From Nemertoderma westbladi (taxonomy: Eukaryota > Animalia > Xenacoelomorpha), in contig JAUCBJ010006371.1 of assembly GCA_032718475.1 (NCBI GenBank), positions 1 through 64,000 of the forward strand: 64,000 nt of DNA, written 5' to 3'. Below, piece after piece: positions 564-47,453 of this stretch. How positions within the stretch are numbered: the first letter of the stretch is position 1; each line of letters starts with the position of its first letter. The notes beneath the pieces are model-generated. The model saw nothing but the letters and a program-made list of their open reading frames with translations, ran no database searches and had not been told where the DNA came from. The position numbers were made by a program, and so were the translations under genes.

Positions 564-815
564 CCAACCAATTCCTACCAACATGCGTTGCTACTCAATC
601 CATCATCCAATAGGATCCGCCGCCTTCCACCGTTCGTCCAATCAGATTGGAGCAGCCACAATCCGTCGTCTGTTTCACTGCTGCCTCCCAGCGGGACTGG
701 TAGGAATCCTATCACGAGGGTTGCTGTTACCCCACACACTGGTCTCCGAATTCGGGGTTGACAGACGGGATAAGGGTCGCCTTGGCAACGGGATTTACTT
801 TGCTAGTTCCGCGAG
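564..815 (+). CDS. PARP4: PARP4 exon (first visible): PARP catalytic domain, N-terminal part
   Basis: RRLFHCCLPAGLVGILSRGLLLP...DKGRLGNGIYF matches PARP4 LLHGS...VGILCRGLLLP...DVGNLGSGIYF. Acceptor ttccag| at 563 (less certain); donor ag|gtcagt at 816, phase 2. Upstream exons lie outside the window. Confidence 0.88.
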
Positions 816-1709: not shown

Positions 1710-1937
1710 CACTAGCATCAACTACTCAACACCTAACAGTTGCACCGGCACACGTTTCCTATTGGTTAATGAGGTTGTCCTTGGCAACGTGTTGGAGATA
1801 CATACAGAAGCACCCGAGCTCAGTGCGCCTCCTAGCGGATTCCATTCCGTTACTGGAGTGGCCTCTACACTCTCCATGGCAACCGACTTTGCCGATGAAG
1901 AGTTCGTAATTTACGACGCAAATCAGCAGAAAATTTG
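1710..1937 (+). CDS. PARP4: PARP4 exon: catalytic domain C-terminal part with catalytic Glu (DEEFVIY)
   Basis: tttttag|c acceptor; TSINYSTPNSCTGTRFLLVNEVVLG...SAPPSGFHSVTGV...TDFADEEFVIYDANQQKI matches PARP4 TSIKYS...TDFEDDEFVVYKTNQVKM; donor tg|gttagt. Confidence 0.93.
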
Positions 1938-1958
1938 GTTAGTTTAAATATCATTTAT

Positions 1959-4900
1959 AGTTTATCTGTTAGATTTACTTGTATTTTAGTTACTTTGAGT
2001 TTATCTGTTAGATTTACTTGTATTTTAGTTACTTTGAGTTTATCTGTTAGATTTACTTGTATTTTAGTTACATTGAGTTTATCTGTTAGATTTACTTGTA
2101 TTTTAGTTACATTGAGTTTATCTGTTAGATTTACTTGTATTTTAGTTACTTTGAGTTTATCTGTTAGATTTCCTTGTATTTTAGTTACATTGAGTTTATC
2201 TGTTAGATTTACTTGTATTTTAGTTACTTTGAGTTTATCTGTTAGATTTACTTGTATTTTAGTTACATTGAGTTTATCTGTTAGATTTACTTGTATTTTA
2301 GTTACATTGAGTTTATCTGTTAGATTTACTTGTATTTTAGTTACATTGAGTTTATCTGTTAGATTTCCTTGTATTTTAGTTACATTGAGTTTATCTGTTA
2401 GATTTACTTGTATTTTAGTTACATTGAGTTTATCTGTTAGATTTACTTGTATTTTAGTTACATTGAGTTTATCTGTTAGATTTCCTTGTATTTTAGTTAC
2501 TTTGAGTTTATCTGTTAGATTTACTTGTATTTTAGTTACATTGAGTTTATCTGTTAGATTTCCTTGTATTTTAGTTACTTTGAGTTTATCTGTTAGATTT
2601 ACTTGTATTTTAGTTACTTTGAGTTTATCTGTTAGATTTACTTGTATTTTAGTTACATTGAGTTTATCTGTTAGATTTACTTGTATTTTAGTTACATTGA
2701 GTTTATCTGTTAGATTTACTTGTATTTTAGTTACATTGAGTTTATCTGTTAGATTTACTTGTATTTTAGTTACATTGAGTTTATCTGTTAGATTTACTTG
2801 TATTTTAGTTACTTTGAGTTTATCTGTTAGATTTACTTGTATTTTAGTTACATTGAGTTTATCTGTTAGATTTACTTGTATTTTAGTTACTTTGAGTTTA
2901 TCTGTTAGATTTACTTGTATTTTAGTTACATTGAGTTTATCTGTTAGATTTCCTTGTATTTTAGTTACTTTGAGTTTATCTGTTAGATTTACTTGTATTT
3001 TAGTTACATTGAGTTTATCTGTTAGATTTCCTTGTATTTTAGTTACATTGAGTTTATCTGTTAGATTTACTTGTATTTTAGTTACATTGAGTTTATCTGT
3101 TAGATTTACTTGTATTTTAGTTACTTTGAGTTTATCTGTTAGATTTACTTGTATTTTAGTTACATTGAGTTTATCTGTTAGATTTACTTGTATTTTAGTT
3201 ACATTGAGTTTATCTGTTAGATTTACTTGTATTTTAGTTACATTGAGTTTATCTGTTAGATTTACTTGTATTTTAGTTACATTGAGTTTATCTGTTAGAT
3301 TTACTTGTATTTTAGTTACTTTGAGTTTATCTGTTAGATTTACTTGTATTTTAGTTACATTGAGTTTATCTGTTAGATTTACTTGTATTTTAGTTACTTT
3401 GAGTTTATCTGTTAGATTTACTTGTATTTTAGTTACATTGAGTTTATCTGTTAGATTTACTTGTATTTTAGTTACATTGAGTTTATCTGTTAGATTTACT
3501 TGTATTTTAGTTACTTTGAGTTTATCTGTTAGATTTACTTGTATTTTAGTTACATTGAGTTTATCTGTTAGATTTACTTGTATTTTAGTTACATTGAGTT
3601 TATCTGTTAGATTTCCTTGTATTTTAGTTACATTGAGTTTATCTGTTAGATTTACTTGTATTTTAGTTACATTGAGTTTATCTGTTAGATTTACTTGTAT
3701 TTTAGTTACATTGAGTTTATCTGTTAGATTTACTTGTATTTTAGTTACATTGAGTTTATCTGTTAGATTTCCTTGTATTTTAGTTACATTGAGTTTATCT
3801 GTTAGATTTACTTGTATTTTAGTTACTTTGAGTTTATCTGTTAGATTTACTTGTATTTTAGTTACATTGAGTTTATCTGTTAGATTTACTTGTATTTTAG
3901 TTACTTTGAGTTTATCTGTTAGATTTCCTTGTATTTTAGTTACATTGAGTTTATCTGTTAGATTTACTTGTATTTTAGTTACATTGAGTTTATCTGTTAG
4001 ATTTACTTGTATTTTAGTTACATTGAGTTTATCTGTTAGATTTACTTGTATTTTAGTTACATTGAGTTTATCTGTTAGATTTACTTGTATTTTAGTTACT
4101 TTGAGTTTATCTGTTAGATTTACTTGTATTTTAGTTACATTGAGTTTATCTGTTAGATTTACTTGTATTTTAGTTACATTGAGTTTATCTGTTAGATTTA
4201 CTTGTATTTTAGTTACATTGAGTTTATCTGTTAGATTTCCTTGTATTTTAGTTACATTGAGTTTATCTGTTAGATTTACTTGTATTTTAGTTACATTGAG
4301 TTTATCTGTTAGATTTACTTGTATTTTAGTTACGTTGAGTTTATCTGTTAGATTTACTTGTATTTTAGTTACATTGAGTTTATCTGTTAGATTTACTTGT
4401 ATTTTAGTTACATTGAGTTTATCTGTTAGATTTCCTTGTATTTTAGTTACATTGAGTTTATCTGTTAGATTTACTTGTATTTTAGTTACTTTGAGTTTAT
4501 CTGTTAGATTTACTTGTATTTTAGTTACATTGAGTTTATCTGTTAGATTTACTTGTATTTTAGTTACTTTGAGTTTATCTGTTAGATTTACTTGTATTTT
4601 AGTTACATTGAGTTTATCTGTTAGATTTCCTTGTATTTTAGTTACATTGAGTTTATCTGTTAGATTTACTTGTATTTTAGTTACATTGAGTTTATCTGTT
4701 AGATTTACTTGTATTTTAGTTACATTGAGTTTATCTGTTAGATTTACTTGTATTTTAGTTACATTGAGTTTATCTGTTAGATTTCCTTGTATTTTAGTTA
4801 CATTGAGTTTATCTGTTAGATTTACTTGTATTTTAGTTACTTTGAGTTTATCTGTTAGATTTACTTGTATTTTAGTTACATTGAGTTTATCTGTTAGATT

Positions 4901-5515
4901 TACTTGTATTTTAGTTACTTTGAGTTTATCTGTTAGATTTCCTTGTATTTTAGTTACATTGAGTTTATCTGTTAGATTTACTTGTATTTTAGTTACATTG
5001 AGTTTATCTGTTAGATTTACTTGTATTTTAGTTACATTGAGTTTATCTGTTAGATTTACTTGTATTTTAGTTACATTGAGTTTATCTGTTAGATTTACTT
5101 GTATTTTAGTTACTTTGAGTTTATCTGTTAGATTTACTTGTATTTTAGTTACATTGAGTTTATCTGTTAGATTTACTTGTATTTTAGTTACATTGAGTTT
5201 ATCTGTTAGATTTACTTGTATTTTAGTTACTTTGAGTTTATCTGTTAGATTTCCTTGTATTTTAGTTACATTGAGTTTATCTGTTAGATTTACTTGTATT
5301 TTAGTTACATTGAGTTTATCTGTTAGATTTACTTGTATTTTAGTTACATTGAGTTTATCTGTTAGATTTACTTGTATTTTAGTTACATTGAGTTTATTTG
5401 TTAGATTTACTTGTATTTTAGTTACATTGAGTTTATTTGTTAGATTTACTTGTATTTTAGTTCTTTGAGTTTATCTGTTAGATTTACTTGTATTTTAGTT
5501 ACTTTGAGTTTATCT
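1959..5515. repeat. 39-bp satellite, left block (~91 copies): AGTTTATCTGTTAGATTTACTTGTATTTTAGTTACATTG
   Basis: Near-perfect tandem array; the 13-aa periodicity in the ORF track (LSLSVRFTCILVT) gives 39 bp. Confidence 0.98.
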
Positions 5516-5726
5516 CACTGAAAAAACGAAACCTGTATTATTTATTGAAAAACCACCGGTTTGCCGAAGGAATCGCCGATTAAAATCCAGCCACTTTAAT
5601 CGCCGATTCTTTCAGCAAACCGGTGGTTTCGAAAACCGGTGGTTAAGCCAAACCGGTGGTTTAGGAAAGTTATAAACTCTGGGTTTATTCTTTATTTTCA
5701 ACCATATCGAACGGGATTCACAAACT

Positions 5727-8700
5727 TAAAACCTGATTTAGATGTATTTTAAACAGGGGTTCATTCATACAAAACCAGGGGTTCCTAAATATAAAACCCG
5801 GTTTAGATGTATTTTAAACAGGGGTTCATTCATACAAAACCAGGGGTTCCTAAATATAAAACCCGGTTTAGATGTATTTTAAACAGGGGTTCATTCACAC
5901 AAAACCAGGGGTTCCTAAATATAAAACCTGGTTTAGATGTATTTTAAACAGGGGTTCATTCATACAAAACCAGGGGTTCCTAAATATAAAACCTGGTTTA
6001 GATGTATTTTAAACAGGGGTTCATTCATACAAAACCAGGGGTTCCTAAATATAAAACCCGGTTTAGATGTATTTTAAACAGGGGTTCATTCACACAAAAC
6101 CAGGGGTTCCTAAATATAAAACCCGGTTTAGATGTATTTTAAACAGGGGTTCATTCATACAAAACCAGGGGTTCCTAAATATAAAACCCGGTTTAGATGT
6201 ATTTTAAACAGGGGTTCATTCATACAAAACCAGGGGTTCCTAAATATAAAACCTGGTTTAGATGTATTTTAAACAGGGGTTCATTCATACAAAACCAGGG
6301 GTTCCTAAATATAAAACCTGGTTTAGATGTATTTTAAACAGGGGTTCATTCATACAAAACCAGGGGTTCCTAAATATAAAACCCGGTTTAGATGTATTTT
6401 AAACAGGGGTTCATTCACACAAAACCAGGGGTTCCTAAATATAAAACCCGGTTTAGATGTATTTTAAACAGGGGTTCATTCACACAAAACCAGGGGTTCC
6501 TAAATATAAAACCCGGTTTAGATGTATTTTAAACAGGGGTTCATTCACACAAAACCAGGGGTTCCTAAATATAAAACCCGGTTTAGATGTATTTTAAACA
6601 GGGGTTCATTCATACAAAACCAGGGGTTCCTAAATATAAAACCTGGTTTAGATGTATTTTAAACAGGGGTTCATTCACACAAAACCAGGGGTTCCTAAAT
6701 ATAAAACCTGGTTTAGATGTATTTTAAACAGGGGTTCATTCATACAAAACCAGGGGTTCCTAAATATAAAACCCGGTTTAGATGTATTTTAAACAGGGGT
6801 TCATTCACACAAAACCAGGGGTTCCTAAATATAAAACCCGGTTTAGATGTATTTTAAACAGGGGTTCATTCACACAAAACCAGGGGTTCCTAAATATAAA
6901 ACCCGGTTTAGATGTATTTTAAACAGGGGTTCATTCACACAAAACCAGGGGTTCCTAAATATAAAACCCGGTTTAGATGTATTTTAAACAGGGGTTCATT
7001 CACACAAAACCAGGGGTTCCTAAATATAAAACCTGGTTTAGATGTATTTTAAACAGGGGTTCATTCATACAAAACCAGGGGTTCCTAAATATAAAACCCG
7101 GTTTAGATGTATTTTAAACAGGGGTTCGTTCATACAAAACCAGGGGTTCCTAAATATAAAACCCGGTTTAGATGTATTTTAAACAGGGGTTCATTCACAC
7201 AAAACCAGGGGTTCCTAAATATAAAACCCGGTTTAGATGTATTTTAAACAGGGGTTCATTCACACAAAACCAGGGGTTCCTAAATATAAAACCCGGTTTA
7301 GATGTATTTTAAACAGGCGTTCATTCATACAAAACCAGGGGTTCCTAAATATAAAACCCGGTTTAGATGTATTTTAAACAGGGGTTCATTCACACAAAAC
7401 CAGGGGTTCCTAAATATAAAACCCGGTTTAGATGTATTTTAAACAGGGGTTCATTCACACAAAACCAGGGGTTCCTAAATATAAAACCCGGTTTAGATGT
7501 ATTTTAAACAGGGGTTCATTCATACAAAACCAGGGGTTCCTAAATATAAAACCCGGTTTAGATGTATTTTAAACAGGCGTTCATTCATACAAAACCAGGG
7601 GTTCCTAAATATAAAACCCGGTTTAGATGTATTTTAAACAGGGGTTCATTCACACAAAACCAGGGGTTCCTAAATATAAAACCCGGTTTAGATGTATTTT
7701 AAACAGGGGTTCATTCACACAAAACCAGGGGTTCCTAAATATAAAACCCGGTTTAGATGTATTTTAAACAGGCGTTCATTCATACAAAACCAGGGGTTCC
7801 TAAATATAAAACCTGGTTTAGATGTATTTTAAACAGGCGTTCATTCATACAAAACCAGGGGTTCCTAAATATAAAACCTGGTTTAGATGTATTTTAAACA
7901 GGCGTTCATTCATACAAAACCAGGGGTTCCTAAATATAAAACCCGGTTTAGATGTATTTTAAACAGGGGTTCATTCATACAAAACCAGGGGTTCCTAAAT
8001 ATAAAACCCGGTTTAGATGTATTTTAAACAGGGGTTCATTCATACAAAACCAGGGGTTCCTAAATATAAAACCCGGTTTAGATGTATTTTAAACAGGGGT
8101 TCATTCATACAAAACCAGGGGTTCCTAAATATAAAACCCGGTTTAGATGTATTTTAAACAGGGGTTCATTCACACAAAACCAGGGGTTCCTAAATATAAA
8201 ACCTGGTTTAGATGTATTTTAAACAGGGGTTCGTTCATTCACACAAAACCAGGGGTTCCTAAATATAAAACCTGGTTTAGATGTATTTTAAACAGGGGTT
8301 CGTTCATTCACACAAAACCAGGGGTTCCTAAATATAAAACCTGGTTTAGATGTATTTTAAACAGGGGTTCGTTCATTCACACAAAACCAGGGGTTCCTAA
8401 ATATAAAACCTGGTTTAGATGTGTGAAACGGGGTTTCATTCACACAAAACCAGGGGTTCCTAAATATAAAACCCGGTTTAGATGTATTTTAAACAGGGGT
8501 TCATTCACACAAAACCAGGGGTTCCTAAATATAAAACCTGGTTTAGATGTATTTGAAACAGGGTTTCATTCACACAAAACCAGGGGTTCCTAAATATAAA
8601 ACCCGGTTTAGATGTATTTTAAACAGGGGTTCATTCATACAAAACCAGGGGTTCCTAAATATAAAACCCGGTTTAGATGTATTTTAAACAGGGGTTCATT

Positions 8701-8892
8701 CACACAAAACCAGGGGTTCCTAAATATAAAACCCGGTTTAGATGTATTTTAAACAGGGTTTCATTCACACAAAACCAGGGGTTCCTAAATATAAAACCCG
8801 GTTTAGATGTATTTTAAACAGGGGTTCATTCACACAAAACCAGGGGTTCCTAAATATAAAACCTGGTTTAGATGTATTTGAAACAGGGTTTT
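5727..8892. repeat. 65-bp tandem array (~48 copies), left subterminal region of the CACTG element
   Basis: tcattcatac recurs at 5761, 5826, 5891; the unit is three ~22-bp subunits, each with an AAAC..GGTT core. Confidence 0.95.
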
Positions 8893-8921
8893 TACATAAT
8901 CTTACAAGAACACAAAACATA

Positions 8922-9454
8922 CACCATATCCCTTAATACAATCATTTTTAAGGGGTTGGAGCCCCCCCCCCCCTATTTTTTTTCAAATTTCAATCATATG
9001 CTACGAAATCTGGTATGATGGTAGTTCGACAATTTTTCAACTGCTGGCCTGGCCGGATTTTTTAATTTATGAGCTATTTCGATACAACATGAGGCCGTTA
9101 AAAACCCCTTTTTAACAATATTTAACCATCTCTGTTGGCTTTATTTTTAATATTTTGAATGTAATCTAGATATTATGTCAAAGATATTATGAAAATACTA
9201 GGGTGTAAATTTTGAGACTAAAATAAAGCCAACAAGATGGTTAAATTTAAATATTGCTAAAAATGAGTTTTTTAACGGCTTGTTGTATCGAAATAGCTCA
9301 TAAATTAAAAAATCAGGCAAAGCCAGCAGGAAGAAAAGTTGGTGAACTACCATCAAACCAAATTTCCTAGCACATGATTGAAATTTGAAAAAAAGAGGGG
9401 GGGGGGGGGGGCTCCGATCCCCTAAAAATGGTTGTTGTACTAAGGGAGATGGTG
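8922..9454. mobile_element. Foldback MITE with TA target duplication (Tc1/mariner-type), nested in the CACTG element
   Basis: TA|CACCATATCCCTTAATACA ... TGTACTAAGGGAGATGGTG|TA; about 230-bp imperfect inverted arms including polyC/polyG. Confidence 0.78.
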
Positions 9455-10149
9455 TATATACAGCAGACACAAGGGGGAAAATACATATAAAGTAAAACAC
9501 ACTAATCTAAAAGAAGATAAGGCATATGAGGATACTCTAATAAATAAAACAGCCCTTTATTCAGTTTGTCTTTCCATTATGCAAAATTATCATTCTATCA
9601 TTAAACTTAAATTGATTTACATTTACTTAGTTAACTTTATAATATCATATCATTTCATATAACAGTAAAGGAAGGTGCATCATGTTAGAACTTAGAACTG
9701 TGGGGCAGTGGGGAACATCTTAATATTTCATTTAAAACATGTCGTGTCTGTTCAACCAATAAGGTAGCTGAAAAATGCTGTGGTGTGGGGTAACTATTAA
9801 AAGTGGATTTGGAAGCTTTGTCCGGTCTGTGAGAATTCTGTTGACCAAGAACAGTTGCTTGAAAGTTTCATTAAACTCAAAACGAAAAGTGTTCATAGGG
9901 ATAATCTTTTCATTCCGTCACAGTGATAGAGGGAAGCCATACTATGTTCCAAATAAACCCCTCCTCACATTTAGTCCCAGTTCCGCAGTTATCCAACTGG
10001 ATATCAGTAAATATAACATTGCCCTGAAAAGGGCCGTTTGGGTTGGTGTAAGACGAGTCAGGGAAGTGTCAGGGTGTGGGATACCACACACTGAGATGCG
10101 CGAGCAAGTTTGTAAGGGCAGTGGTCGTGGTCCCAGTTTTCACATAGGT

Positions 10150-10640
10150 CGTGTAACTCGCACCACATGAACTCGTCCAGGTGGCTGGGCAGCAAGGTGC
10201 TCTGGACGCTGCACATCGACTTAAATCCAGAAATCGGCGCTTGCAGTTCTTCCAGTAGCACTCGGCGTGGTTGGTGCAGGCACCAGTAACTGGGTCGACG
10301 AAGTTTTGGTCATGGATCACGACTTGGTGTGAGTACACCATGTTCGGCATGGCACCGATCCCGTGCATGCTGCCCAACTATCGGAATGAATGATGGAACC
10401 AGGCGCGATATAGTTGCCTATAATTGGCAGCAACGTCAGAACGAATTTGCCTCAAGAGTCAAGATGCCCGTCGACCGTCTTGAGGAAGAAGCCCTCCTGT
10501 TTGAGGCTGAGATGGGCAGATCGTGCTGAATACCCCGCGCTCAGGCTGTCAGGCACCTCGTGGCCCACGTTCCCCTTCCCATCCGCTTAGCTATTGGTAT
10601 TAGCGACTCGTCGACTTCGACGATAACCTGATCACGCCCG
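10150..10640 (-). pseudogene. Frameshifted Merlin / IS1595-ISXO2-like DDE transposase relic
   Basis: In different minus-strand frames: IVEVDESL (~10605-10625), TLLPIIGNYIAPGSIIHSDSWAA (~10370-10437), YSHQVVIHDQNFVDPVTGACTNHAECYWKNCKRRF and LLPSHLDEFMW (~10163). These are the diagnostic ISXO2-type D, D, E motifs in the correct order. Confidence 0.88.
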
Positions 10641-11509
10641 GTCCGTCGATAAAATGGGGGTGGTAAATAATATGCACTAACAGTGACAGTATACTGGCTG
10701 ACTGGTATAACAATAGGCTACAAGGTACGGTCAGACGGTACAGAGATCGGTCTGCCGGTAGGTTTAATAAATAGTTCCCGGTATATATAGCAGTATACTG
10801 CTGTACTGGTATAGGCAGATAGGCCTAGCAGCCTAGAGCTGAAAAATGCAGAAAGATGTTTGCATTCAGGAGGGGCAAAGGGGGTCCCCCAGCAGCCCAG
10901 TCCCTGTTGCCTGTACTTCTCTCCTGACTGCAGGACTGCCTGACTCCTGTTCAGCTTTCATTGTTTCATCTCTATCTACTGATCTAACCAGTTCCGGCCT
11001 TCGGCCTACCTACCAGCTACCACCGGTACCCTACAGCCAGGCCATACAGCACACCCTGCAGCCCAACTCCTGGCCCTGGGGTCCTGTACTCTGCTACTGC
11101 ACTAAAGGCCTAAAACTAGTAAACCCAAGCGGCCAAAAAAATTGTACGGTGTGCAGTCTTAGTGCTCATGCTACAGTGCTGGTATCAGAGGCTATTGCAA
11201 TAGGCAGATATGCACCGGTCCAATGCTGAATGCAGAATGCGGCATTTAGGTATGACTGTATGATACAAGTCAATAATATATACCGGTAGCTGAATACAGG
11301 AATAGGTCAGGTGCCAACCTGCTCCGACCATGATAGATTAGACAGTTAGATAGCCCGGGAAATTCAAATGATTTGAATTAACCGCCAAAAATATATAAAT
11401 TCATTGTGTCTTTATCATTTGAATTTCCATGGCTGGAGCGCAGGGTAAACACCTTTTGGCTTTTAGGGACTTGTGCGGCATTATGGGTAAGAAGGTTTCA
11501 AATATTAAC

Positions 11510-12560
11510 AAACCCCAGGTATTATCGCATTCATTTATGACTTATTATTATTATAAAACCGGCATTTTGTTTGTTAAAAACCTCAATCATTATTGAATAA
11601 AAACCCAGGTTTATCAGTTAACAAAATTAAGGTTAAATGTATAAAAAATGCATGGTTTTAATTAACCAAAACCCCTAGTTTCCAATATTATCAAACCCCA
11701 GGTTTTCTCGTACAAATTTGCGACTGTTATTATCATAAAACCGGCATTTTATTTGTTAAAAACCTAAATCTTTATTGAATAAAAACCCAGGTTTATCAGT
11801 TAACAAAATTAAGGTTAAATGTATAAAAAATGCATGGTTTTAATTAACCAAAACCCCTAGTTTCCAATATTATCAAACCCCACGTTTTCTCGTACAAATT
11901 TGCGACTGTTATTATCATAAAACCGGCATTTTATTTGTTAAAAACCTCAATCTTTATTGAATAAAAACCCAGGTTTATCAGTTAACAAAATTAAGGTTAA
12001 ATGTAAAAAAAATGCATGGTTTTAATTAACCAAAACCCCTAGTTTCCAATATTATCAAACCCCAGGTTTTCTCGTACAAATTTGCGACTGTTATTATCAT
12101 AAAACCGGCATTTTATTTGTTAAAAACCTCAATCTTTATTGAATAAAAACCCAGGTTTATCAGTTAACAAAATTAAGGTTAAATGTAAAAAAAATGCATG
12201 GTTTTAATTAACCAAAACCCCTAGTTTCCAATATTATCAAACCCCAGGTTTTCTCGTACAAATTTGCGACTGTTATTATTATAAAACCGGCATTTTATTA
12301 GTTAAAAACCTCAATCTTTATTGAATAAAAACCCAGGTTTATCAGTTAACAAAATTAAGGTTAAATGTATAAAAAATGCATGGTTTTAATTAAACAAAAC
12401 CCCTAGTTTCCAATATTATCAAACCCCAGGTTTACTCGTACAAATTTGCGACTGTTATTATCATAAGACCGGCATTTTATTTGTTAAAAACCTCAATCTT
12501 TATTGATTAAAAACCCGGTTTATCAGTCAACAAAATGAAGGGTTAATGTATAAAAAAATT
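11510..12560. repeat. 182-bp tandem array (~5.7 copies), right subterminal region of the CACTG element
   Basis: cccaggttttctcgtac recurs with a 182-bp period (e.g. 12061, 12243); AAACC motifs about every 45 bp. Confidence 0.92.
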
Positions 12561-12899
12561 TTGTTTCATTATTTATGTGTTTATTATGGGGTTAAACCCG
12601 GGTTTGTCACTGATTAGAAAACCATCATCAAATTATTTAAAACCGGTGGTTTTGTTTCTCATTAAAACTAGGGTTTTTTGAGAAACCAGTAGTTTGATAA
12701 AAAAATATTAAAAGTTTTATAATTCTTTTAAAAGTAATTGTAATTAACCCTAATGTCAATACCACTCAAACTAATTATATAAATCGTTAATTTGAAACAC
12801 TTATTCTTTTTTCGAAATCGGAAGTTCCAAATTGAAAACCTATGTTATAATTTACAACCTAGGGTGAAAATCACAAATACAGGTTTGGTTTTTTCAGTG

Positions 12900-15800
12900 C
12901 TGTTAGATTTACTTGTATTTTAGTTACTTTGAGTTTATCTGTTAGATTTACTTGTATTTTAGTTACTTTGAGTTTATCTGTTAGATTTACTTGTATTTTA
13001 GTTACATTGAGTTTATCTGTTAGATTTACTTGTATTTTAGTTACATTGAGTTTATCTGTTAGATTTACTTGTATTTTAGTTACATTGAGTTTATCTGTTA
13101 GATTTACTTGTATTTTAGTTACTTTGAGTTTATCTGTTAGATTTCCTTGTATTTTAGTTACATTGAGTTTATCTGTTAGATTTACTTGTATTTTAGTTAC
13201 ATTGAGTTTATCTGTTAGATTTCCTTGTATTTTAGTTACATTGAGTTTATCTGTTAGATTTACTTGTATTTTAGTTACATTGAGTTTATCTGTTAGATTT
13301 ACTTGTATTTTAGTTACATTGAGTTTATCTGTTAGATTTCCTTGTATTTTAGTTACATTGAGTTTATCTGTTAGATTTACTTGTATTTTAGTTACATTGA
13401 GTTTATCTGTTAGATTTACTTGTATTTTAGTTACATTGAGTTTATCTGTTAGATTTCCTTGTATTTTAGTTACTTTGAGTTTATCTGTTAGATTTCCTTG
13501 TATTTTAGTTACTTTGAGTTTATCTGTTAGATTTACTTGTATTTTAGTTACTTTGAGTTTATCTGTTAGATTTACTTGTATTTTAGTTACATTGAGTTTA
13601 TCTGTTAGATTTACTTGTATTTTAGTTACTTTGAGTTTATCTGTTAGATTTACTTGTATTTTAGTTACATTGAGTTTATCTGTTAGATTTACTTGTATTT
13701 TAGTTACATTGAGTTTATCTGTTAGATTTACTTGTATTTTAGTTACATTGAGTTTATCTGTTAGATTTCCTTGTATTTTAGTTACATTGAGTTTATCTGT
13801 TAGATTTACTTGTATTTTAGTTACATTGAGTTTATCTGTTAGATTTACTTGTATTTTAGTTACATTGAGTTTATCTGTTAGATTTCCTTGTATTTTAGTT
13901 ACATTGAGTTTATCTGTTAGATTTACTTGTATTTTAGTTACATTGAGTTTATCTGTTAGATTTCCTTGTATTTTAGTTACATTGAGTTTATCTGTTAGAT
14001 TTACTTGTATTTTAGTTACATTGAGTTTATCTGTTAGATTTCCTTGTATTTTAGTTACATTGAGTTTATCTGTTAGATTTACTTGTATTTTAGTTACTTT
14101 GAGTTTATCTGTTAGATTTACTTGTATTTAAGTTACATTGAGTTTATCTGTTAGATTTCCTTGTATTTTAGTTACATTGAGTTTATCTGTTAGATTTACT
14201 TGTATTTTAGTTACATTGAGTTTATCTGTTAGATTTCCTTGTATTTTAGTTACTTTGAGTTTATCTGTTAGATTTACTTGTATTTTAGTTACATTGAGTT
14301 TATCTGTTAGATTTACTTGTATTTTAGTTACTTTGAGTTTATCTGTTAGATTTCCTTGTATTTTAGTTACTTTGAGTTTATCTGTTAGATTTACTTGTAT
14401 TTTAGTTACATTGAGTTTATCTGTTAGATTTACTTGTATTTTAGTTACTTTGAGTTTATCTGTTAGATTTACTTGTATTTTAGTTACATTGAGTTTATCT
14501 GTTAGATTTACTTGTATTTTAGTTACATTGAGTTTATCTGTTAGATTTCCTTGTATTTTAGTTACATTGAGTTTATCTGTTAGATTTACTTGTATTTTAG
14601 TTACATTGAGTTTATCTGTTAGATTTCCTTGTATTTTAGTTACATTGAGTTTATCTGTTAGATTTACTTGTATTTTAGTTACATTGAGTTTATCTGTTAG
14701 ATTTCCTTGTATTTTAGTTACATTGAGTTTATCTGTTAGATTTACTTGTATTTTAGTTACATTGAGTTTATCTGTTAGATTTACTTGTATTTTAGTTACA
14801 TTGAGTTTATCTGTTAGATTTACTTGTATTTTAGTTACTTTGAGTTTATCTGTTAGATTTACTTGCATTTTAGTTACTTTGAGTTTATCTGTTAGATTTA
14901 CTTGTATTTTAGTTACATTGAGTTTATCTGTTAGATTTACTTGTATTTTAGTTACATTGAGTTTATCTGTTAGATTTCCTTGTATTTTAGTTACATTGAG
15001 TTTATCTGTTAGATTTACTTGTATTTTAGTTACATTGAGTTTATCTGTTAGATTTACTTGTATTTTAGTTACTTTGAGTTTATCTGTTAGATTTACTTGT
15101 ATTTTAGTTACATTGAGTTTATCTGTTAGATTTACTTGTATTTTAGTTACTTTGAGTTTATCTGTTAGATTTACTTGTATTTTAGTTACTTTGAGTTTAT
15201 CTGTTAGATTTCCTTGTATTTTAGTTACATTGAGTTTATCTGTTAGATTTACTTGTATTTTAGTTACATTGAGTTTATCTGTTAGATTTACTTGTATTTT
15301 AGTTACTTTGAGTTTATCTGTTAGATTTCCTTGTATTTTAGTTACATTGAGTTTATCTGTTAGATTTACTTGTATTTTAGTTACATTGAGTTTATCTGTT
15401 AGATTTACTTGTATTTTAGTTACTTTGAGTTTATCTGTTAGATTTACTTGTATTTTAGTTACATTGAGTTTATCTGTTAGATTTACTTGTATTTTAGTTA
15501 CTTTGAGTTTATCTGTTAGATTTACTTGTATTTTAGTTACTTTGAGTTTATCTGTTAGATTTACTTGTATTTTAGTTACATTGAGTTTATCTGTTAGATT
15601 TACTTGTATTTTAGTTACTTTGAGTTTATCTGTTAGATTTACTTGCATTTTAGTTACTTTGAGTTTATCTGTTAGATTTACTTGTATTTTAGTTACATTG
15701 AGTTTATCTGTTAGATTTACTTGTATTTTAGTTACATTGAGTTTATCTGTTAGATTTCCTTGTATTTTAGTTACATTGAGTTTATCTGTTAGATTTACTT

Positions 15801-18800
15801 GTATTTTAGTTACATTGAGTTTATCTGTTAGATTTACTTGTATTTTAGTTACTTTGAGTTTATCTGTTAGATTTACTTGTATTTTAGTTACATTGAGTTT
15901 ATTTGTTAGATTTACTTGTATTTTAGTTACTTTGAGTTTATCTGTTAGATTTACTTGTATTTTAGTTACTTTGAGTTTATCTGTTAGATTTCCTTGTATT
16001 TTAGTTACATTGAGTTTATCTGTTAGATTTACTTGTATTTTAGTTACATTGAGTTTATCTGTTAGATTTACTTGTATTTTAGTTACTTTGAGTTTATCTG
16101 TTAGATTTCCTTGTATTTTAGTTACATTGAGTTTATCTGTTAGATTTACTTGTATTTTAGTTACATTGAGTTTATCTGTTAGATTTACTTGTATTTTAGT
16201 TACTTTGAGTTTATCTGTTAGATTTCCTTGTATTTTAGTTACATTGAGTTTATCTGTTAGATTTACTTGTATTTTAGTTACATTGAGTTTATCTGTTAGA
16301 TTTACTTGTATTTTAGTTACTTTGAGTTTATCTGTTAGATTTCCTTGTATTTTAGTTACATTGAGTTTATCTGTTAGATTTACTTGTATTTTAGTTACAT
16401 TGAGTTTATCTGTTAGATTTACTTGTATTTTAGTTACTTTGAGTTTATCTGTTAGATTTACTTGTATTTTAGTTACATTGAGTTTATCTGTTAGATTTAC
16501 TTGTATTTTAGTTACTTTGAGTTTATCTGTTAGATTTACTTGTATTTTAGTTACTTTGAGTTTATCTGTTAGATTTCCTTGTATTTTAGTTACATTGAGT
16601 TTATCTGTTAGATTTACTTGTATTTTAGTTACATTGAGTTTATCTGTTAGATTTACTTGTATTTTAGTTACTTTGAGTTTATCTGTTAGATTTCCTTGTA
16701 TTTTAGTTACATTGAGTTTATCTGTTAGATTTACTTGTATTTTAGTTACATTGAGTTTATCTGTTAGATTTACTTGTATTTTAGTTACTTTGAGTTTATC
16801 TGTTAGATTTACTTGTATTTTAGTTACATTGAGTTTATCTGTTAGATTTACTTGTATTTTAGTTACTTTGAGTTTATCTGTTAGATTTACTTGTATTTTA
16901 GTTACTTTGAGTTTATCTGTTAGATTTACTTGTATTTTAGTTACATTGAGTTTATCTGTTAGATTTACTTGTATTTTAGTTACTTTGAGTTTATCTGTTA
17001 GATTTACTTGTATTTTAGTTACTTTGAGTTTATCTGTTAGATTTACTTGTATTTTAGTTACATTGAGTTTATCTGTTAGATTTACTTGTATTTTAGTTAC
17101 ATTGAGTTTATCTGTTAGATTTCCTTGTATTTTAGTTACATTGAGTTTATCTGTTAGATTTACTTGTATTTTAGTTACATTGAGTTTATCTGTTAGATTT
17201 ACTTGTATTTTAGTTACTTTGAGTTTATCTGTTAGATTTACTTGTATTTTAGTTACATTGAGTTTATTTGTTAGATTTACTTGTATTTTAGTTACTTTGA
17301 GTTTATCTGTTAGATTTACTTGTATTTTAGTTACTTTGAGTTTATCTGTTAGATTTCCTTGTATTTTAGTTACATTGAGTTTATCTGTTAGATTTACTTG
17401 TATTTTAGTTACATTGAGTTTATCTGTTAGATTTACTTGTATTTTAGTTACTTTGAGTTTATCTGTTAGATTTCCTTGTATTTTAGTTACATTGAGTTTA
17501 TCTGTTAGATTTACTTGTATTTTAGTTACATTGAGTTTATCTGTTAGATTTACTTGTATTTTAGTTACTTTGAGTTTATCTGTTAGATTTACTTGTATTT
17601 TAGTTACATTGAGTTTATCTGTTAGATTTACTTGTATTTTAGTTACTTTGAGTTTATCTGTTAGATTTACTTGTATTTTAGTTACTTTGAGTTTATCTGT
17701 TAGATTTACTTGTATTTTAGTTACATTGAATTTATCTGTTAGATTTACTTGTATTTTAGTTACATTGAGTTTATCTGTTAGATTTACTTGTATTTTAGTT
17801 ACATTGAGTTTATTTGTTAGATTTACTTGTATTTTAGTTACTTTGAGTTTATCTGTTAGATTTACTTGTATTTTAGTTACTTTGAGTTTATCTGTTAGAT
17901 TTACTTGTATTTTAGTTACATTGAGTTTATCTGTTAGATTTACTTGTATTTTAGTTACTTTGAGTTTATCTGTTGGATTTACTTGTATTTTAGTTACATT
18001 GAGTTTATCTGTTAGATTTACTTGTATTTTAGTTACATTGAGTTTATCTGTTAGATTTACTTGTATTTTAGTTACTTTGAGTTTATCTGTTAGATTTACT
18101 TGTATTTTAGTTACATTGAGTTTATCTGTTAGATTTACTTGTATTTTAGTTACATTGAGTTTATCTGTTAGATTTCCTTGTATTTTAGTTACATTGAGTT
18201 TATCTGTTAGATTTACTTGTATTTTAGTTACTTTGAGTTTATCTGTTAGATTTACTTGTATTTTAGTTACATTGAGTTTATCTGTTAGATTTACTTGTAT
18301 TTTAGTTACATTGAGTTTATCTGTTAGATTTACTTGTATTTTAGTTACATTGAGTTTATCTGTTAGATTTACTTGTATTTTAGTTACTTTGAGTTTATCT
18401 GTTAGATTTCCTTGTATTTTAGTTACATTGAGTTTATCTGTTAGATTTACTTATATTTTAGTTACATTGAGTTTATCTGTTAGATTTCCTTGTATTTTAG
18501 TTACATTGAGTTTATCTGTTAGATTTACTTGTATTTTAGTTACATTGAGTTTATCTGTTAGATTTACTTGTATTTTAGTTACATTGAGTTTATCTGTTAG
18601 ATTTCCTTGTATTTTAGTTACATTGAGTTTATCTGTTAGATTTACTTGTATTTTAGTTACATTGAGTTTATCTGTTAGATTTACTTGTATTTTAGTTACA
18701 TTGAGTTTATCTGTTAGATTTCCTTGTATTTTAGTTACTTTGAGTTTATCTGTTAGATTTCCTTGTATTTTAGTTACTTTGAGTTTATCTGTTAGATTTC

Positions 18801-21800
18801 CTTGTATTTTAGTTACATTGAGTTTATCTGTTAGATTTACTTGTATTTTAGTTACATTGAGTTTATCTGTTAGATTTACTTGTATTTTAGTTACTTTGAG
18901 TTTATCTGTTAGATTTACTTGTATTTTAGTTACTTTGAGTTTATCTGTTAGATTTACTTGTATTTTAGTTACTTTGAGTTTATCTGTTAGATTTACTTGT
19001 ATTTTAGTTACATTGAGTTTATCTGTTAGATTTACTTGTATTTTAGTTACTTTGAGTTTATCTGTTAGATTTACTTGTATTTTAGTTACATTGAGTTTAT
19101 CTGTTAGATTTCCTTGTATTTTAGTTACATTGAGTTTATCTGTATGATTTACTTGTATTTTAGTTACATTGAGTTTATCTGTTAGATTTACTTGTATTTT
19201 AGTTACATTGAGTTTATCTGTTAGATTTACTTGTATTTTAGTTACATTGAGTTTATCTGTTAGATTTACTTGTATTTTAGTTACATTGAGTTTATCTGTT
19301 AGATTTACTTGTATTTTAGTTACATTGAGTTTATCTGTTAGATTTACTTGTATTTTAGTTACATTGAGTTTATTTGTTAGATTTACTTGTATTTTAGTTA
19401 CATTGAGTTTATCTGTTAGATTTACTTGTATTTTAGTTACATTGAGTTTATCTGTTAGATTTACTTGTATTTTAGTTACATTGAGTTTATCTGTTAGATT
19501 TACTTGTATTTTAGTTACATTGAGTTTATCTGTTAGATTTACTTGTATTTTAGTTACATTGAGTTTATATGTTAGATTTACTTGTATTTTAGTTACATTG
19601 AGTTTATCTGTTAGATTTACTTGTATTTTAGTTACATTGAGTTTATTTGTTAGATTTACTTGTATTTTAGTTACATTGAGTTTATCTGTTAGATTTACTT
19701 GTATTTTAGTTACATTGAGTTTATTTGTTAGATTTACTTGTATTTTAGTTACATTGAGTTTATCTGTTAGATTTACTTGTATTTTAGTTACATTGAGTTT
19801 ATCTGTTAGATTTCCTTGTATTTTAGTTACATTGAGTTTATCTGTTAGATTTACTTGTATTTTAGTTACATTGAGTTTATCTGTTAGATTTACTTGTATT
19901 TTAGTTACTTTGAGTTTATCTGTTAGATTTACTTGTATTTTAGTTACATTAAGTTTATCTGTTAGATTTACTTGTATTTTAGTTACATTGAGTTTATCTG
20001 TTAGATTTACTTGTATTTTAGTTACATTGAGTTTATCTGTTAGATTTACTTGTATTTTAGTTACATTGAGTTTATCTGTTAGATTTACTTGTATTTTAGT
20101 TACATTGAGTTTATCTGTTAGATTTACTTGTATTTTAGTTACATTGAGTTTATCTGTTAGATTTACTTGTATTTTAGTTACTTTGAGTTTATCTGTTAGA
20201 TTTACTTGTATTTTAGTTACTTTGAGTTTATCTGTTAGATTTACTTGTATTTTAGTTACATTAAGTTTATCTGTTAGATTTACTTGTATTTTAGTTACAT
20301 TGAGTTTATCTGTTAGATTTACTTGTATTTTAGTTACTTTGAGTTTATCTGTTAGATTTACTTGTATTTTAGTTACTTTGAGTTTATCTGTTAGATTTAC
20401 TTGTATTTTAGTTACATTGAGTTTATCTGTTAGATTTACTTGTATTTTAGTTACATTGAGTTTATCTGTTAGATTTACTTGTATTTTAGTTACATTGAGT
20501 TTATCTGTTAGATTTACTTGTATTTTAGTTACATTGAGTTTATCTGTTAGATTTACTTGTATTTTAGTTACTTTGAGTTTATCTGTTAGATTTACTTGTA
20601 TTTTAGTTACTTTGAGTTTATCTGTTAGATTTACTTGTATTTTAGTTACTTTGAGTTTATCTGTTAGATTTACTTGTATTTTAGTTACATTGAGTTTATC
20701 TGTTAGATTTACTTGTATTTTAGTTACATTGAGTTTATCTGTTAGATTTACGTTTGTATTTTAGTTACATTGAGTTTATCTGTTAGATTTACTTGTATTT
20801 TAGTTACATTGAGTTTATCTGTTAGATTTACTTGTATTTTAGTTACATTGAGTTTATCTGTTAGATTTACTTGTATTTTAGTTACTTTGAGTTTATCTGT
20901 TAGATTTACTTGTATTTTAGTTACTTTGAGTTTATCTGTTAGATTTACTTGTATTTTAGTTACATTGAGTTTATCTGTTAGATTTACTTGTATTTTAGTT
21001 ACATTGAGTTTATCTGTTAGATTTACTTGTATTTTAGTTACATTGAGTTTATCTGTTAGATTTACTTGTATTTTAGTTACATTGAGTTTATCTGTTAGAT
21101 TTACTTGTATTTTAGTTACATTGAGTTTATCTGTTAGATTTACTTGTATTTTAGTTACATTGAGTTTATCTGTTATTTTTACTTGTATTTTAGTTACATT
21201 GAGTTTATCTGTTAGATTTACTTGTATTTTAGTTATATTGAGTTTATCTGTTAGATTTACTTGTATTTTAGTTACATTGAGTTTATCTGTTAGATTTACT
21301 TGTATTTTAGTTACATTGAGTTTATCTGTTAGATTTACTTGTATTTTAGTTACATTGAGTTTATCTGTTAGATTTCCTTGTATTTTAGTTACATTGAGTT
21401 TATCTGTTAGATTTACTTGTATTTTAGTTACATTGAGTTTATCTGTTAGATTTCCTTGTATTTTAGTTACTTTGAGTTTATCTGTTAGATTTACTTGTAT
21501 TTTAGTTACATTGAGTTTTTTCTGTTAGATTTCCTTGTATTTTAGTTACATTGAGTTTTTTTCTGTTAGATTTCCTTGTATTTTAGTTACATTGAGTTTA
21601 TCTGTTAGATTTACTTGTATTTTAGTTACATTGAGTTTATCTGTTATTTTTACTTGTATTTTAGTTACATTGAGTTTATCTGTTAGATTTACTTGTATTT
21701 TAGTTATATTGAGTTTATCTGTTAGATTTACTTATATTTTAGTTACATTGAGTTTATCTGTTAGATTTACTTGTATTTTAGTTACATTGAGTTTATCTGT

Positions 21801-22375
21801 TAGATTTACTTGTATTTTAGTTACATTGAGTTTATCTGTTAGATTTCCTTGTATTTTAGTTACATTGAGTTTATCTGTTAGATTTACTTGTATTTTAGTT
21901 ACTTTGAGTTTATCTGTTAGATTTACTTGTATTTTAGTTACATTGAGTTTATCTGTTAGATTTACTTGTATTTTAGTTACATTGAGTTTATCTGTTAGAT
22001 TTACTTGTATTTTAGTTCTTTGAGTTTATCTGTTAGATTTACTTGTATTTTAGTTACTTTGAGTTTATCTGTTAGATTTACTTGTATTTTAGTTACATTG
22101 AGTTTATCTGTTAGATTTCCTTGTATTTTAGTTACTTTGAGTTTATCTGTTAGATTTACTTGTATTTTAGTTACATTGAGTTTTTTTCTGTTAGATTTCC
22201 TTGTATTTTAGTTACATTGAGTTTTTTTATGTTAGATTTCCTTGTATGTTAGTTACATTGAGTTTATCTGTTAGATTTACTTGTATTTTAGTTACATTGA
22301 GTTTTTTTCTGTTAGATTTACTTGTATTTTAGTTACATTGAGTTTATCTGTTAGATTTACTTGTATTTTAGTTAC
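12900..22375. repeat. 39-bp satellite, right block (~243 copies), ending at the PARP4 splice acceptor
   Basis: Same unit as 1959-5515; the last copy runs directly into ttttag|TTACCTCATTGAGTTTACA. Confidence 0.98.
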
Positions 22376-22603
22376 CTCATTGAGTTTACACTGGAGGACG
22401 ACTCCCTCACACCTCTAACCCATTCCCTAACCTCCGACGATATTCCTTCTGCCGATATCGATAAACCTCTACCAGTAGATATCCCCCGGGTTACCACTGA
22501 CGACGCTTTGAGTAAATGCCCGTCGGGTTTATTGGCTGCCGGTACCGGGGTCCCCTTAAAGTCAGTCCACGTTCGCGCAAGGATTATCGATTTAGTTGCT
22601 CAG
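22372..22603 (+). CDS. PARP4: PARP4 exon: end of catalytic domain and start of VIT domain
   Basis: Phase-2 join gives C-YLIEFTLEDD (PARP4 KYIIKFSMPGD) ... GLLAAGTGVPLKSVHVRARIIDLVAQ; donor cag|gtaatt. Confidence 0.92.
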
Positions 22604-23111
22604 GTAATTAATGTATTTATTCGAAAATGGAAATGTTTTTGCTATGGATTAGGCCTGTTAGTTACCGATACATCCAACATTTCGGAATTACTTTCATTTT
22701 TTAACAATCATGACCGGTTTACTTAAACTGGAAAAGTGGCATAGAGTATATATTGTAAACTATTGGTAAAAGGAAGTTAATGTAAACTATTATTTTGCCG
22801 TTAGGTCAGTGAATTCGTACAAAATCTGACGACTTATTTCCACTGCGGTCCCCCCAGAACTGAACTGGTACGACCTAGAATATAATGATATTTGTAATTT
22901 TTTTATTCTCGCAGAATATTTTTTTTAACTTCGTCTTATTAGTTTCTTTATGTTATAGCACCTTTTTTCAGGGTCAGGTCGGAGGAGGCATTATTCATCA
23001 GGGAGTTCAGGAAGTATTATTTTTGTGCATCAAACTACATGGACTTACATAACATTAATAATTTATACCATAAATAAAAGTCATGTTTATTTATTTTTAT
23101 CATATATTAAG

Positions 23112-23330
23112 GTTGTAGTCCTTCAGGAGTATTACAATCAGAGAGATGAAGCGGTGGAAGCCAAGTTTGTGTTTCCATTGGACGAATCGTCGGCAGTTTG
23201 TGGGTTCGAAGCGTTTATCAACGGTAAACACATCGTTGGTGAGGTCAAGGAGAAACAGGTGGCTCATAGAGAGTACAAGGAGGCAGTGGAGAAGGGCCAT
23301 GGTGCTTATCTAATGGATGAGGACAGGCCA
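23112..23330 (+). CDS. PARP4: PARP4 exon: VIT domain
   Basis: EAKFVFPLDESSAVCGFEAFINGKHIVGEVKEK...GHGAYLM is near-identical to the PARP4 VIT domain; aag| acceptor, |gtgagt donor, 73 codons. Confidence 0.95.
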
Positions 23331-24025: not shown

Positions 24026-24190
24026 GATGTATTTACTGTAACCATTGGTAACCTACCGCCAGACTCAACTGCACTCATTAAGATCACCTACGTCACGGAG
24101 GTGCCAGTTTCCTGTGATCAAGTTGTTTTCTCTCTGCCATCTAGTGTCGCTCCGTGGCAAACTAAAGAACTCACAATGGAATCCACCCAG
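24026..24190 (+). CDS. PARP4: PARP4 exon: VIT C-terminus
   Basis: DVFTVTIGNLPPDSTALIKITYVTEV...PSSVAPWQTKELTMESTQ; tttag| acceptor, cag|gttagc donor, 55 codons (missed by the ORF track). Confidence 0.93.
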
Positions 24191-24940
24191 GTTAGCGCCA
24201 TCTAGTGTCGCACCGTGGTAAACTAAAGAACTCACAATGGAATCCACCCAGGTTAGCGCCATCTAGTGTCGCACCGTGGTAAACTAAAGAACTCAAAATG
24301 GAATCCACCCAGGTTAGCACCATCTAGTGTCGCACCGTGGCAAATTAAAGAACTCACAATGGAATCCACCAAGGTTAGCGCCATCTAGTGTCGCGCCGTG
24401 GCAAACTAAAGAACTGAAAATGGAATCCACCCAGGTTAGCGCCATCTAGTGTCGCACCGTGGCAAATAAAAAACTCACAATGGAATCCATCCAGGTTAGC
24501 GCCATCTAGTGTCGCACCGTGGCAAACTAAAGAACTCACAATGGAATCCACCAAGGTTAGCGCCATCTAGTGTCGCACCGTGGCAAACTAAAGAACTCCA
24601 ATCGAATCCACCCAGGTTAGCGCCATCTAGTGTCGCACCGTGGTAAACTAAAGAACTCGCAATGGAATCCACCAAGGTTAGCGCCATCTAGTGTCGCACC
24701 GTGGCAAACTAAAGAACTCCAATCGAATCCACCCAGGTTAGCGCCATCTAGTGTCGCACCGTGGCAAACTAAAGAACTCACAATGGAATCCACCCAGGTT
24801 AGCGCCATCTAGTGTCGCACCGTGGCAAACTAAAGAACTCACAATGGAATCCACCAAGGTTAGCGCCATCTAGTGTCGCACCGTGGCAAACTAATGAACT
24901 CACAATGGAATCCACCCAGGTTAGCGCCATCTAGTGTTGC
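24136..24940. repeat. 61-bp tandem repeat (13 copies) made of the exon 3' end plus its splice donor
   Basis: gccatctagtgtcgcaccgtggcaaactaaagaactcacaatggaatccacccag|gttagc repeated; the first copy is the coding exon end. Confidence 0.96.
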
Positions 24941-25015
24941 AAACTAAATCACCGAGTTTACTTTTTGTCATTATCTGGTGATTTAATAGTTTTATATTTA
25001 TTTATCCCCATTAAG

Positions 25016-26122
25016 GATTGTGTTACCAAGGAAACACCAATCGGTGAATTCCACGGAGACAGCAGCGTCCAGGTTTCCTTGGAGATGGCATCGGAGATCC
25101 GAAGCGTGGAGAGCTCGAGCCACCCAATCAGAACGAAGCTGACCGCAACCAAGGCTACCGTGGAGACTCTGATTGGCTGCAATCTGTCCGAGGGTTTCCG
25201 CCTGTCCATCTCATTGGTCGAGATCCACGCGCCCCGTATGTGGGTGGAGGAGTGGAGCGAGGAGCGGGGTACCGGTGCCCCCTCCTCCGACCCCCACTCC
25301 GCCTCCTCCTCCGCCCCCCATCCCGAGGCCTGTATGCTAGCTTTCTACCCCGAGTTCGACGCCCAATCCCGCACCGACTACCGACTACTCATCCTGCTCG
25401 ACGTCTCCAACTCGATGGACCTCTCGAGCCTCCAGGAGGCGCGCACCCTCGCCTCCCTAGCTCTCCTCTCCCTCCATCGACGCTCCTCTTTCAACCTTGT
25501 CCTCTTCGCCTCCAGCTGGGCGGAGCTCTTCCCGGGCTTCGTAGAGGCGTCGCATAGCAACGTCCAATCAGCGATCGCGTTAGTTGCCTCGACAACGGGG
25601 GGTCGCGGTGCCACTGACCTAGTCGCGCCGTTGGAGGCCGCGGCTCAGCTCGCTGGCTCCCGATTGGTCAACGCCATGGTGATTACCGACGGACACGTAT
25701 CCAATGACGGCTCCGTTATGAACTGCATCCGGGCCAGGTCCAATAAACTGCGAGTGTTCCCCTGCGGGGTGGGCCGCTCCACCAATCGCTATCTACTCAA
25801 CCTGATCGCGAGGACCTCTAGCGGTTGCGCTGAGTACTTCGAGAGTAATAATCGAAGCAAGTGGCGACGCAAGATGGCGCTGCAATTCGAGAGGGTTGGC
25901 TCGCCGTCGTTGAAGCGAGTTCGTATCGAGTGGCAACTGTTCGGTGAGCGCGCCGACATCCTACAGGCGCCCCGGATAGTCAGCTCGCTGTTCAGCGGGA
26001 ACCGACTTGTAGTCTACGGGTTGCTTAGCAACTGTCGTCTAGCGACTCTGACCGCGGATATCGACGGACACGAAGTCTCGGCGGTTATCAGTTGTTCCGA
26101 ACTATCAGTTACTAGTGGGAAG
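25016..26122 (+). CDS. PARP4: PARP4 exon: vWA domain with intact MIDAS
   Basis: EIHAPRMWVE...EACMLAFYPEF, LLDVSNSM (DxSxS), GATDL, VITDGH, RVFPCGVG, QAP...SLFSGNRLVVYG; taag| acceptor, aag|gtttgt donor. Confidence 0.95.
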
Positions 26123-27975: not shown

Positions 27976-28094
27976 TTAAAGCTAAATATAAATATTGTAC
28001 CCTTTTCTAATTTTAGGTGCCCCTAATTAACACGCCTCACTGCAATTTAGTACCATTACATTAGTACATTAGGTTCCAACATAGATACATTTAG

Positions 28095-42239: not shown

Positions 42240-42422
42240 ATGATCCATCAGCTAGCAGCTCGAGCTCTTATTCGCGATTGGGAACAGGGGTTGCTTGGCA
42301 ACACAGCTGTGGAACACGAGTCATTGAAAATGACAACAAAATCGACAATTATAGAACTCAGCCAAATCTATCAAATAGTCACGGAATTTACTAGCTTTAT
42401 CGCTGTTGAGAAAAGAGAAAAA
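42240..42422 (+). CDS. PARP4: PARP4 exon: post-vWA helical region
   Basis: MIHQLAARALIRDWEQG...IIELSQIYQIVTEFTSFIAVEKR matches PARP4 MIHKLAARALIRDYEDG...TQFTSFVAVEKR; ttccag| acceptor, |gttagt donor. Confidence 0.95.
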
Positions 42423-47426: not shown

Positions 47427-47453
47427 GTTATTTTCCGATTATTTCTGTTCCAG

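Follow-up and report, generated by a model that had tools for sequence, protein, structure and literature searches.

How does a transcript find the one acceptor that joins the next exon, when its intron contains several hundred near copies of that acceptor? The question is raised by a PARP4-like gene of the xenacoelomorph Nemertoderma westbladi, whose ten 3′ exons lie on the + strand of the 64,000-nt stretch analysed here (assembly GCA_032718475.1, contig JAUCBJ010006371.1, positions 1 to 64,000; hereafter the window), the gene start lying further upstream. One intron of this gene, 1938–22371, measures 20,434 nt between its donor (TTG/GTTAGT, at 1938) and the true acceptor at 22371, and is largely filled by a 39-bp minisatellite whose units repeat that acceptor. 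We consider it likely, with a probability of about three in four, that this minisatellite was born by slippage and is tolerated because cues on the exon side would send splicing to the last copy.

The array occupies 1959–5515 and 12900–22375 and is interrupted by a transposon-like insert. A lenient scan identified 334 acceptor motifs, 91 in the left and 243 in the right arm, comprising 333 decoys and, as the last one, the true site (a stricter pattern yields 331). Each unit joins 31 nt of intron end to 8 exon-derived nt and hence spans the exon–intron boundary. Subtracting the insert (7,384 nt), 2 further nt and 333 units (12,996 nt) from the intron leaves 52 nt, so that an earlier note on this DNA, made from the sequence alone, was right in counting about 330 copies around a 52-nt core; the first decoy, with its AG ending at 1989, restores an intron of exactly this length. 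The intron length of 20.4 kb given there also holds, but its attribution to acceptor copies alone overstates their part, as copies contribute 13.0 kb (64%) and the transposon 7.4 kb (36%). Likewise, the claim that every copy carries the same pyrimidine tract and AG applies strictly to the AG (334/334), whereas the tract is exact in 251 of 333 decoys, the remainder showing point changes or small indels. In these 251 decoys all of the last 31 intron bases are identical to the true site, and identity extends over the 50 upstream bases in 172/333. Downstream of the AG, positions +1 to +4 match the true exon in 329/333 decoys and position +5 in none (0/333). The 39-bp unit was not found elsewhere in the window on either strand.

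Units diverge by 2.3% per site, with 19 types among 326 scored units and 167 of these identical, and multi-unit blocks recur within the array, such as a 32-unit pattern repeated 35 units later. Differences from the consensus rise to 1.54 per unit in the last, exon-proximal bin, partly through indels, compared with 0.39–0.81 elsewhere. The 39-bp array therefore displays concerted evolution with more diverged boundary units.

The presence of the array was examined in assembled contigs of four public sequencing runs, two from one sample (X1 and X2, sample S1), one from a sample of another study (X3, S2) and one from a third sample (X4, S3); either S1 or S2 may be the source of the window. These contigs are built from short words, and array length and its placement between the two exons lie beyond what they can measure. 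In both X1 and X3 the unique contigs break off at 1988 and set in again at 22346, precisely the points where the repeat would branch a 31-mer graph, and the summed depth on the 39-bp unit exceeds the flanking depth by a factor in the hundreds, a ratio that is not a copy number. Left of the array, depth on unique sequence is 27 (X1), 3 (X3) and 0 (X2), and to its right 25, 29 and ~10; no inference is drawn from these values. A loose end before 22341 in X1 and X3 was considered as an array-free allele and rejected, since it corresponds to the 731-nt contig ending at 1988, joined through 30 shared bases. The array is real, and its junctions are present in two DNA samples.

Joining of the two flanking exons is visible in X4. 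This run is listed as “DNA?” and was recognised as spliced RNA from its GT..AG joints alone. One of its contigs (2,778 nt, depth 47.7) joins the donor at 1937 directly to the last acceptor: contig positions 1930–2159 cover 1708–1937 of the window, and contig positions 1700–1930 cover 22371–22601, position 1930 being a shared G. Ahead of 22371 the contig runs into the last bases of the upstream exon and past 24191 into the exon at 25016, and the two further GT..AG joints in the contig remove 508 and 695 nt. No difference from the window was found over ~848 exon bases, compared with 2.3% per site among array units, which suggests from sequence identity that X4 represents an allele close to that of the window. 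Among the run contigs no decoy-spliced product was seen. X4 contigs likewise give no cover on the 39-bp unit; contigs show presence and not absence, so nothing firm follows for decoys or genotype.

What, then, could distinguish the last copy from 333 others? As the sequence upstream of the AG is common to the copies, the choice must come from downstream sequence or from position. GC content is 48% in the real exon after the last copy, compared with 23% after decoys, and the true acceptor lies 232 nt from a strong donor at 22604, with the next decoys at 271 and 312 nt. Cross-exon definition together with exonic enhancers would thus commit the last copy, the one with a real exon and the nearest donor, and is in our view the simplest account of acceptor choice. 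Masking of decoys by local RNA structure was rejected, since true and decoy sites fold alike (unpaired probability of the acceptor tract 0.52 at the true site and 0.51–0.52, standard deviation 0.03, at 43 nearby decoys). The suggestion of the earlier note that the acceptor is picked by exonic cues fits these results: X4 uses the last acceptor, decoys differ from +5 on and folding does not separate the sites, with the reservation that S3 may lack the array. Splicing to 321 of the 333 decoys would add a 7-residue tail and then a stop, as predicted earlier for a typical decoy, and the other 12 stop after 13–159 codons; none (0/333) reaches the exon in frame, and in all of them the stop precedes the VIT domain. 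With this premature stop, such products would probably fall to nonsense-mediated decay (NMD). The acceptor array is most likely without function and probably harmless.

The microhomology proposed by the earlier note offers a starting point for such an array: AGTTTA is an exact 6-nt match at 1959 and 22383, the two copies lying 42 nt apart in the array-free form. Breakpoint pairs across the acceptor with at least 6 matching bases are rare (15/6,666, or 0.23%, including the observed one). The first step would have been a 42-nt duplication between these two AGTTTA motifs, followed, before or during expansion, by removal of 3 nt of exon sequence from the unit (42 to 39 nt). This loss is placed in the unit, the true exon being taken as ancestral, because all 333 decoys differ from the exon by +5 and its spacing recurs in homologs. 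In an alignment of 96 homologs that cross the junction the motif reads Y-x-x-x-F; a simple pattern recovered it in 53 of them, always with the true spacing and never a shorter one, the other 43 going unmatched. The array would then have grown through slippage and unequal exchange, in part by duplicating blocks of several units, and a terminal inverted repeat (TIR) element would finally have inserted into the array. Judged from the sequence, the 39-bp minisatellite likely arose by slippage at this 6-base microhomology. A tiny intron would thus have grown about 400-fold through amplification of its own boundary and subsequent uptake of a transposon.

The same gene harbors a second junction array, with a 61-bp unit repeating a donor. 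GT is kept in 13/13 donors, and the X4 contig leaves exon 24026–24190 at the first of them; use of the second or third donor would instead bring a stop four codons past the exon end. By mirrored logic, exon-side selection would pick the first of 13 donors, at 24190. In both arrays, persistence may be explained by one outer copy staying joined to an intact exon. Tandem arrays cover 38,572 of the 64,000 bases (~60% of the window), most of them away from splice sites, and 2 of about twelve touch a junction, too few for a claim of targeting; against this background, persistence without a role is the most parsimonious view. Further arrays, with units of 34/35, 20, 30 and 37 bp and G/C-rich units, lie at 28091–41800, 45649–47430, 58112–58382, 60293–64000, 2–260 and 53345–53970, the first two of these within PARP4 introns without touching splice sites.

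Several observations weigh against tolerance of the array through correct splicing. The regular junctions are found in a single X4 contig, and its sample, S3, may carry a short allele; against a close allele, no more than 0.89 of the words sampled from the large exon occur in X4. Since rare variants are lost from contigs, decoy splicing at a low level may escape detection, and a leak with a premature stop would likely be hidden by NMD. The exonic enhancers are postulated, and array RNA folds somewhat better than shuffled sequences (z −1.8 and −3.1), leaving room for long-range pairing. Intron definition is common for short introns, and these do exist here, two other introns of the gene shrinking to ~74–96 nt without their arrays. 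The 52-nt intron of the first decoy is complete when transcription still has 20 kb to go to the true acceptor, and proximal use rose in vitro when the downstream site was delayed, in the experiments reported in PMC1450099.

The strongest competing explanation is that transcripts of the array allele are spliced wrongly, chiefly to the first decoy through intron definition, which would make it a PARP4 allele of weak or null effect, and that the regular transcript stems from an individual with a short intron. The RNA-like run X4 indeed derives from a sample other than both DNA samples, the intron ending at the first decoy is identical to the inferred ancestral one, and proximal sites have a kinetic edge in the reported assays (PMC1450099). 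However, the 1,744-codon frame is intact despite an array that is old by its unit types, divergence and transposon, the array junctions occur in two samples of two studies, and X4 is free of exon differences from the window. We therefore regard a mis-spliced allele as unlikely.

The chances are slimmer for another reading: in an animal whose ancestral introns were very short, the donor would stay unspliced past 333 decoys over 20 kb, yet a measurable part of the transcripts would leak to decoys and NMD, which would turn the unstable array into a heritable, length-dependent PARP4 dial. Regulated decoy use is a closely related and still less probable proposal, in which some transcripts are steered into NMD or into a short PARP, with PARP4 output set by the length of the array; the earlier note raised it in the form of NMD targets or a PARP reduced to its catalytic domain. 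The stop ahead of the VIT domain after every decoy (333/333) is compatible with it, and minisatellite pseudo-donors are reported to be used in some human genes, for instance in CBS IVS13 (PMC1557585). Against it, the X4 contig runs unbroken through the junction, many arrays of the window are unrelated to splice sites, and conservation in a second species could not be shown. The decoy tail would also displace the conserved motif that closes the PARP domain: the product would lose one residue of its Y-x-x-x-F end, and the Pfam PARP profile in a homolog extends to residue 587, past the Y at 582, so that an intact short enzyme is doubtful. Since, in addition, no decoy-spliced contig was seen, neither a useful short PARP nor array-length tuning finds support.

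Stepwise removal of the intron, by nested splicing from donor-like motifs in the units or by recursive splicing through decoys, appears very improbable. A GTTAG motif does occur in each unit, resembling three real donors of the gene (TCT/GTTAGA, n = 319). A recursive ratchet point, however, consists of an AG directly followed by GT, which regenerates a donor, and none of 275 AG dinucleotides in 1938–5515 is followed by GT (0/275); decoy splicing thus destroys the donor, and the recursive route is ruled out for the left arm. Nested excision would leave the choice of the final acceptor unexplained. Least credible of all is an origin of the array, in whole or for most of its length, in assembly error: although short-word contigs can neither measure its length nor prove that the copies lie between these exons, the two branch points in X1 and X3, the excess unit depth, the ordered variant blocks and the insert with TIRs and target duplication make misassembly unlikely.

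Tolerance of junction-spanning copies has precedents, and the earlier note was mistaken in treating the structure as unprecedented. Amphioxus “mirage” minisatellites are duplications of intron–exon boundaries in Adh3 and globin genes, with regular splicing and length instability, and comprise 3 and 6 units in BflGb6 (PMC3087553); they have also been described in amphioxus troponin C and PGBD5 (PMC3902484). According to these reports, mirages (Adh3, BflGb6, BflGb9, troponin C, PGBD5) share with the window boundary-spanning copies that keep the AG or GT at 3′ and 5′ sites, as well as less homogenised boundary units, and their mRNA is reported as regular. The window units of 39 and 61 nt fall within the mirage range of 10–160 nt given there. 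Set against the 3 and 6 units of BflGb6, the window has 334 copies; unlike the amphioxus cases as cited, it also contains a 7.4-kb transposon inside the array, an array far larger than the inferred 52-nt intron, and 3′ and 5′ arrays together in one gene.

In the human CBS c.844_845ins68 allele, the duplication takes in 52 intron and 16 exon nucleotides, the distal acceptor is used and the mRNA is normal (PMC7490669, PMC2630376, PMC1802585). Like the window, this allele duplicates an intron end with an exon start, and its distal 3′ splice site is the one chosen, as in the X4 contig, but its two sites lie ~68 nt apart, compared with 334 over 20 kb here, and the choice is reported to be driven by G-runs between the sites, whereas the 39-bp unit has no G-run. 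Human donor minisatellites, including the 37-bp variable number tandem repeat of F7 IVS7 and those of CBS IVS13, LMNB2 and PDGF, comprise 5–20 units (PMC1557585). As described there, unit 1 of the F7 repeat lies across the junction, like that of the 61-bp array, and splicing takes no donor but the first, the one used in the X4 contig as well; the 13 copies found here fall within 5–20. These human arrays are 5′, while the main array of the window is 3′ and exceeds the largest count in the literature cited here (15–20) more than 15 times. No splice-site repeat array of this size was found in print, in a search that covered few subscription journals. Tandem repeats also drive intron size in the Drosophila Y genes kl-3 and kl-5, at megabase scale and with simple satellites that are not known to derive from splice sites.

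By structure, the intron belongs to the mirage class, and regular splicing from the long allele is likely. What is new is its size, the nested transposon and the combination of 3′ and 5′ arrays in one gene, a gain in scale and not in kind. The locus amounts to a natural construct that isolates exon-side selection of a 3′ splice site, with 251 decoys identical to the true site in their upstream letters and the true site 20 kb later. If correct splicing holds in a carrier of the array, it would be an extreme counter-example to “first come, first served” and an invertebrate test bed for exon definition. Coordinates of the array, the insert and the exons are collected in Table 1.

Table 1. Positions of the junction arrays, the insert and the PARP4-like exons in the window
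Feature	Positions	Strand	Evidence or remark
5′ splice site; only unique part (21 nt) of the inferred 52-nt ancestral intron	1938–1958	+	
Left arm of the 39-bp acceptor array, 91 decoys	1959–5515	+	
Right arm of the array, 242 decoys and the true acceptor (AG ending at 22371)	12900–22371	+	
Donor array, 61-bp unit (55 nt exon end and 6 nt intron start), 13 donors (24190 to 24919)	24136–24941	+	
TIR DNA transposon-like insert, 7,384 nt, ends CACTG...CAGTG	5516–12899	.	TIR 23/24 bases, 2-nt CT target duplication
PARP4-like exon, PARP catalytic domain	564–815	+	Open frame; weak Pfam PARP match, E=0.025
Exon 5′ of the giant intron; encodes the bulk of the PARP domain's C-terminal half	1710–1937	+	Pfam PARP, E=2.6e-8; 0 differences in the X4 spliced contig
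True downstream exon; starts with the last PARP strand motif Y-L-I-E-F; AGTTTA at 22383	22372–22603	+	X4 contig joins it to 1937
VIT exon	23112–23330	+	Pfam VIT, E=2.5e-23; GT..AG joints in X4
Exon; its final 55 nt make up the first donor-array unit	24026–24190	+	X4 contig, array scan
vWA exon	25016–26122	+	Pfam VWA_3, E=2.5e-16; PARP4 homologs
Last four exons	42240–42422, 42608–42808, 43210–45586, 47454–47725	+	Complete the 1,744-codon frame

The insert probably landed in an already existing array, as both arms carry the same variants. Elements of the CACTA/EnSpm type have a short TIR starting with CACT(A/G) and a 2–3-nt target duplication, and the insert shows a CACTG TIR with CT on both sides. 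No transposase family was detected by Pfam in the 13 of 24 listed open reading frames (ORFs) scanned, and tblastn against plasmids gave no transposase match. From its sequence, the insert would be at most a non-autonomous element, and the CACTA/EnSpm family label is provisional. Broken frame pieces at 10069–10717 (−) may be related to Merlin/ISXO2-type transposases, with no match in Pfam or by tblastn. The insert contains a 65-bp array (5727–8888) and a 182-bp array (11495–12557), and a fold-back element of ~540 nt, resembling a miniature inverted-repeat transposable element (MITE), is nested at 8919–9457.

Identification of the host gene as PARP4 rests on several lines. Joined at GT..AG borders, the ten exons read open through 1,744 codons to a single stop at the end, and Pfam orders the domains of the joined protein as PARP, VIT and vWA, as in PARP4. 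Named homologs are PARP4, and PDB matches comprise three sequences, PARP4 only. The top homologs, from molluscs, lancelet, echinoderm, cnidarian, sponge and lamprey, are ~40–44% identical. A hidden exon within the giant intron was ruled out, as the exon before it reaches homolog residue 549 and the exon after it continues from residue 551. Short pieces of very high-copy dispersed repeats lie in PARP4 introns at about 1200–1340 and 22819–22861, and these pieces match many contigs in all four runs.

The large exon encodes at 43810–44010 (+) a piece of ~55 residues similar to the N-terminus of actin (Pfam Actin, E=7e-10), which is 64% identical to its counterpart in Nematostella PARP4. The piece was found by pattern in 9 of 167 stored proteins and appears to be conserved among a subset of animal PARP4 proteins. 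In lancelet PARP4 (P0009), residues 1240–1334 represent a 14-3-3 domain's C-terminal half (E=7e-31), to which the protein encoded in the window gives no match. A 14-3-3 likeness of 43210–43620 was rejected, with no Pfam match to this region and none to the 14-3-3 part of P0009. Outside the PARP4-like gene, a large terminal exon of another gene occupies 55487–57730 (−), with what we take, by eye, to be ankyrin-type repeats.

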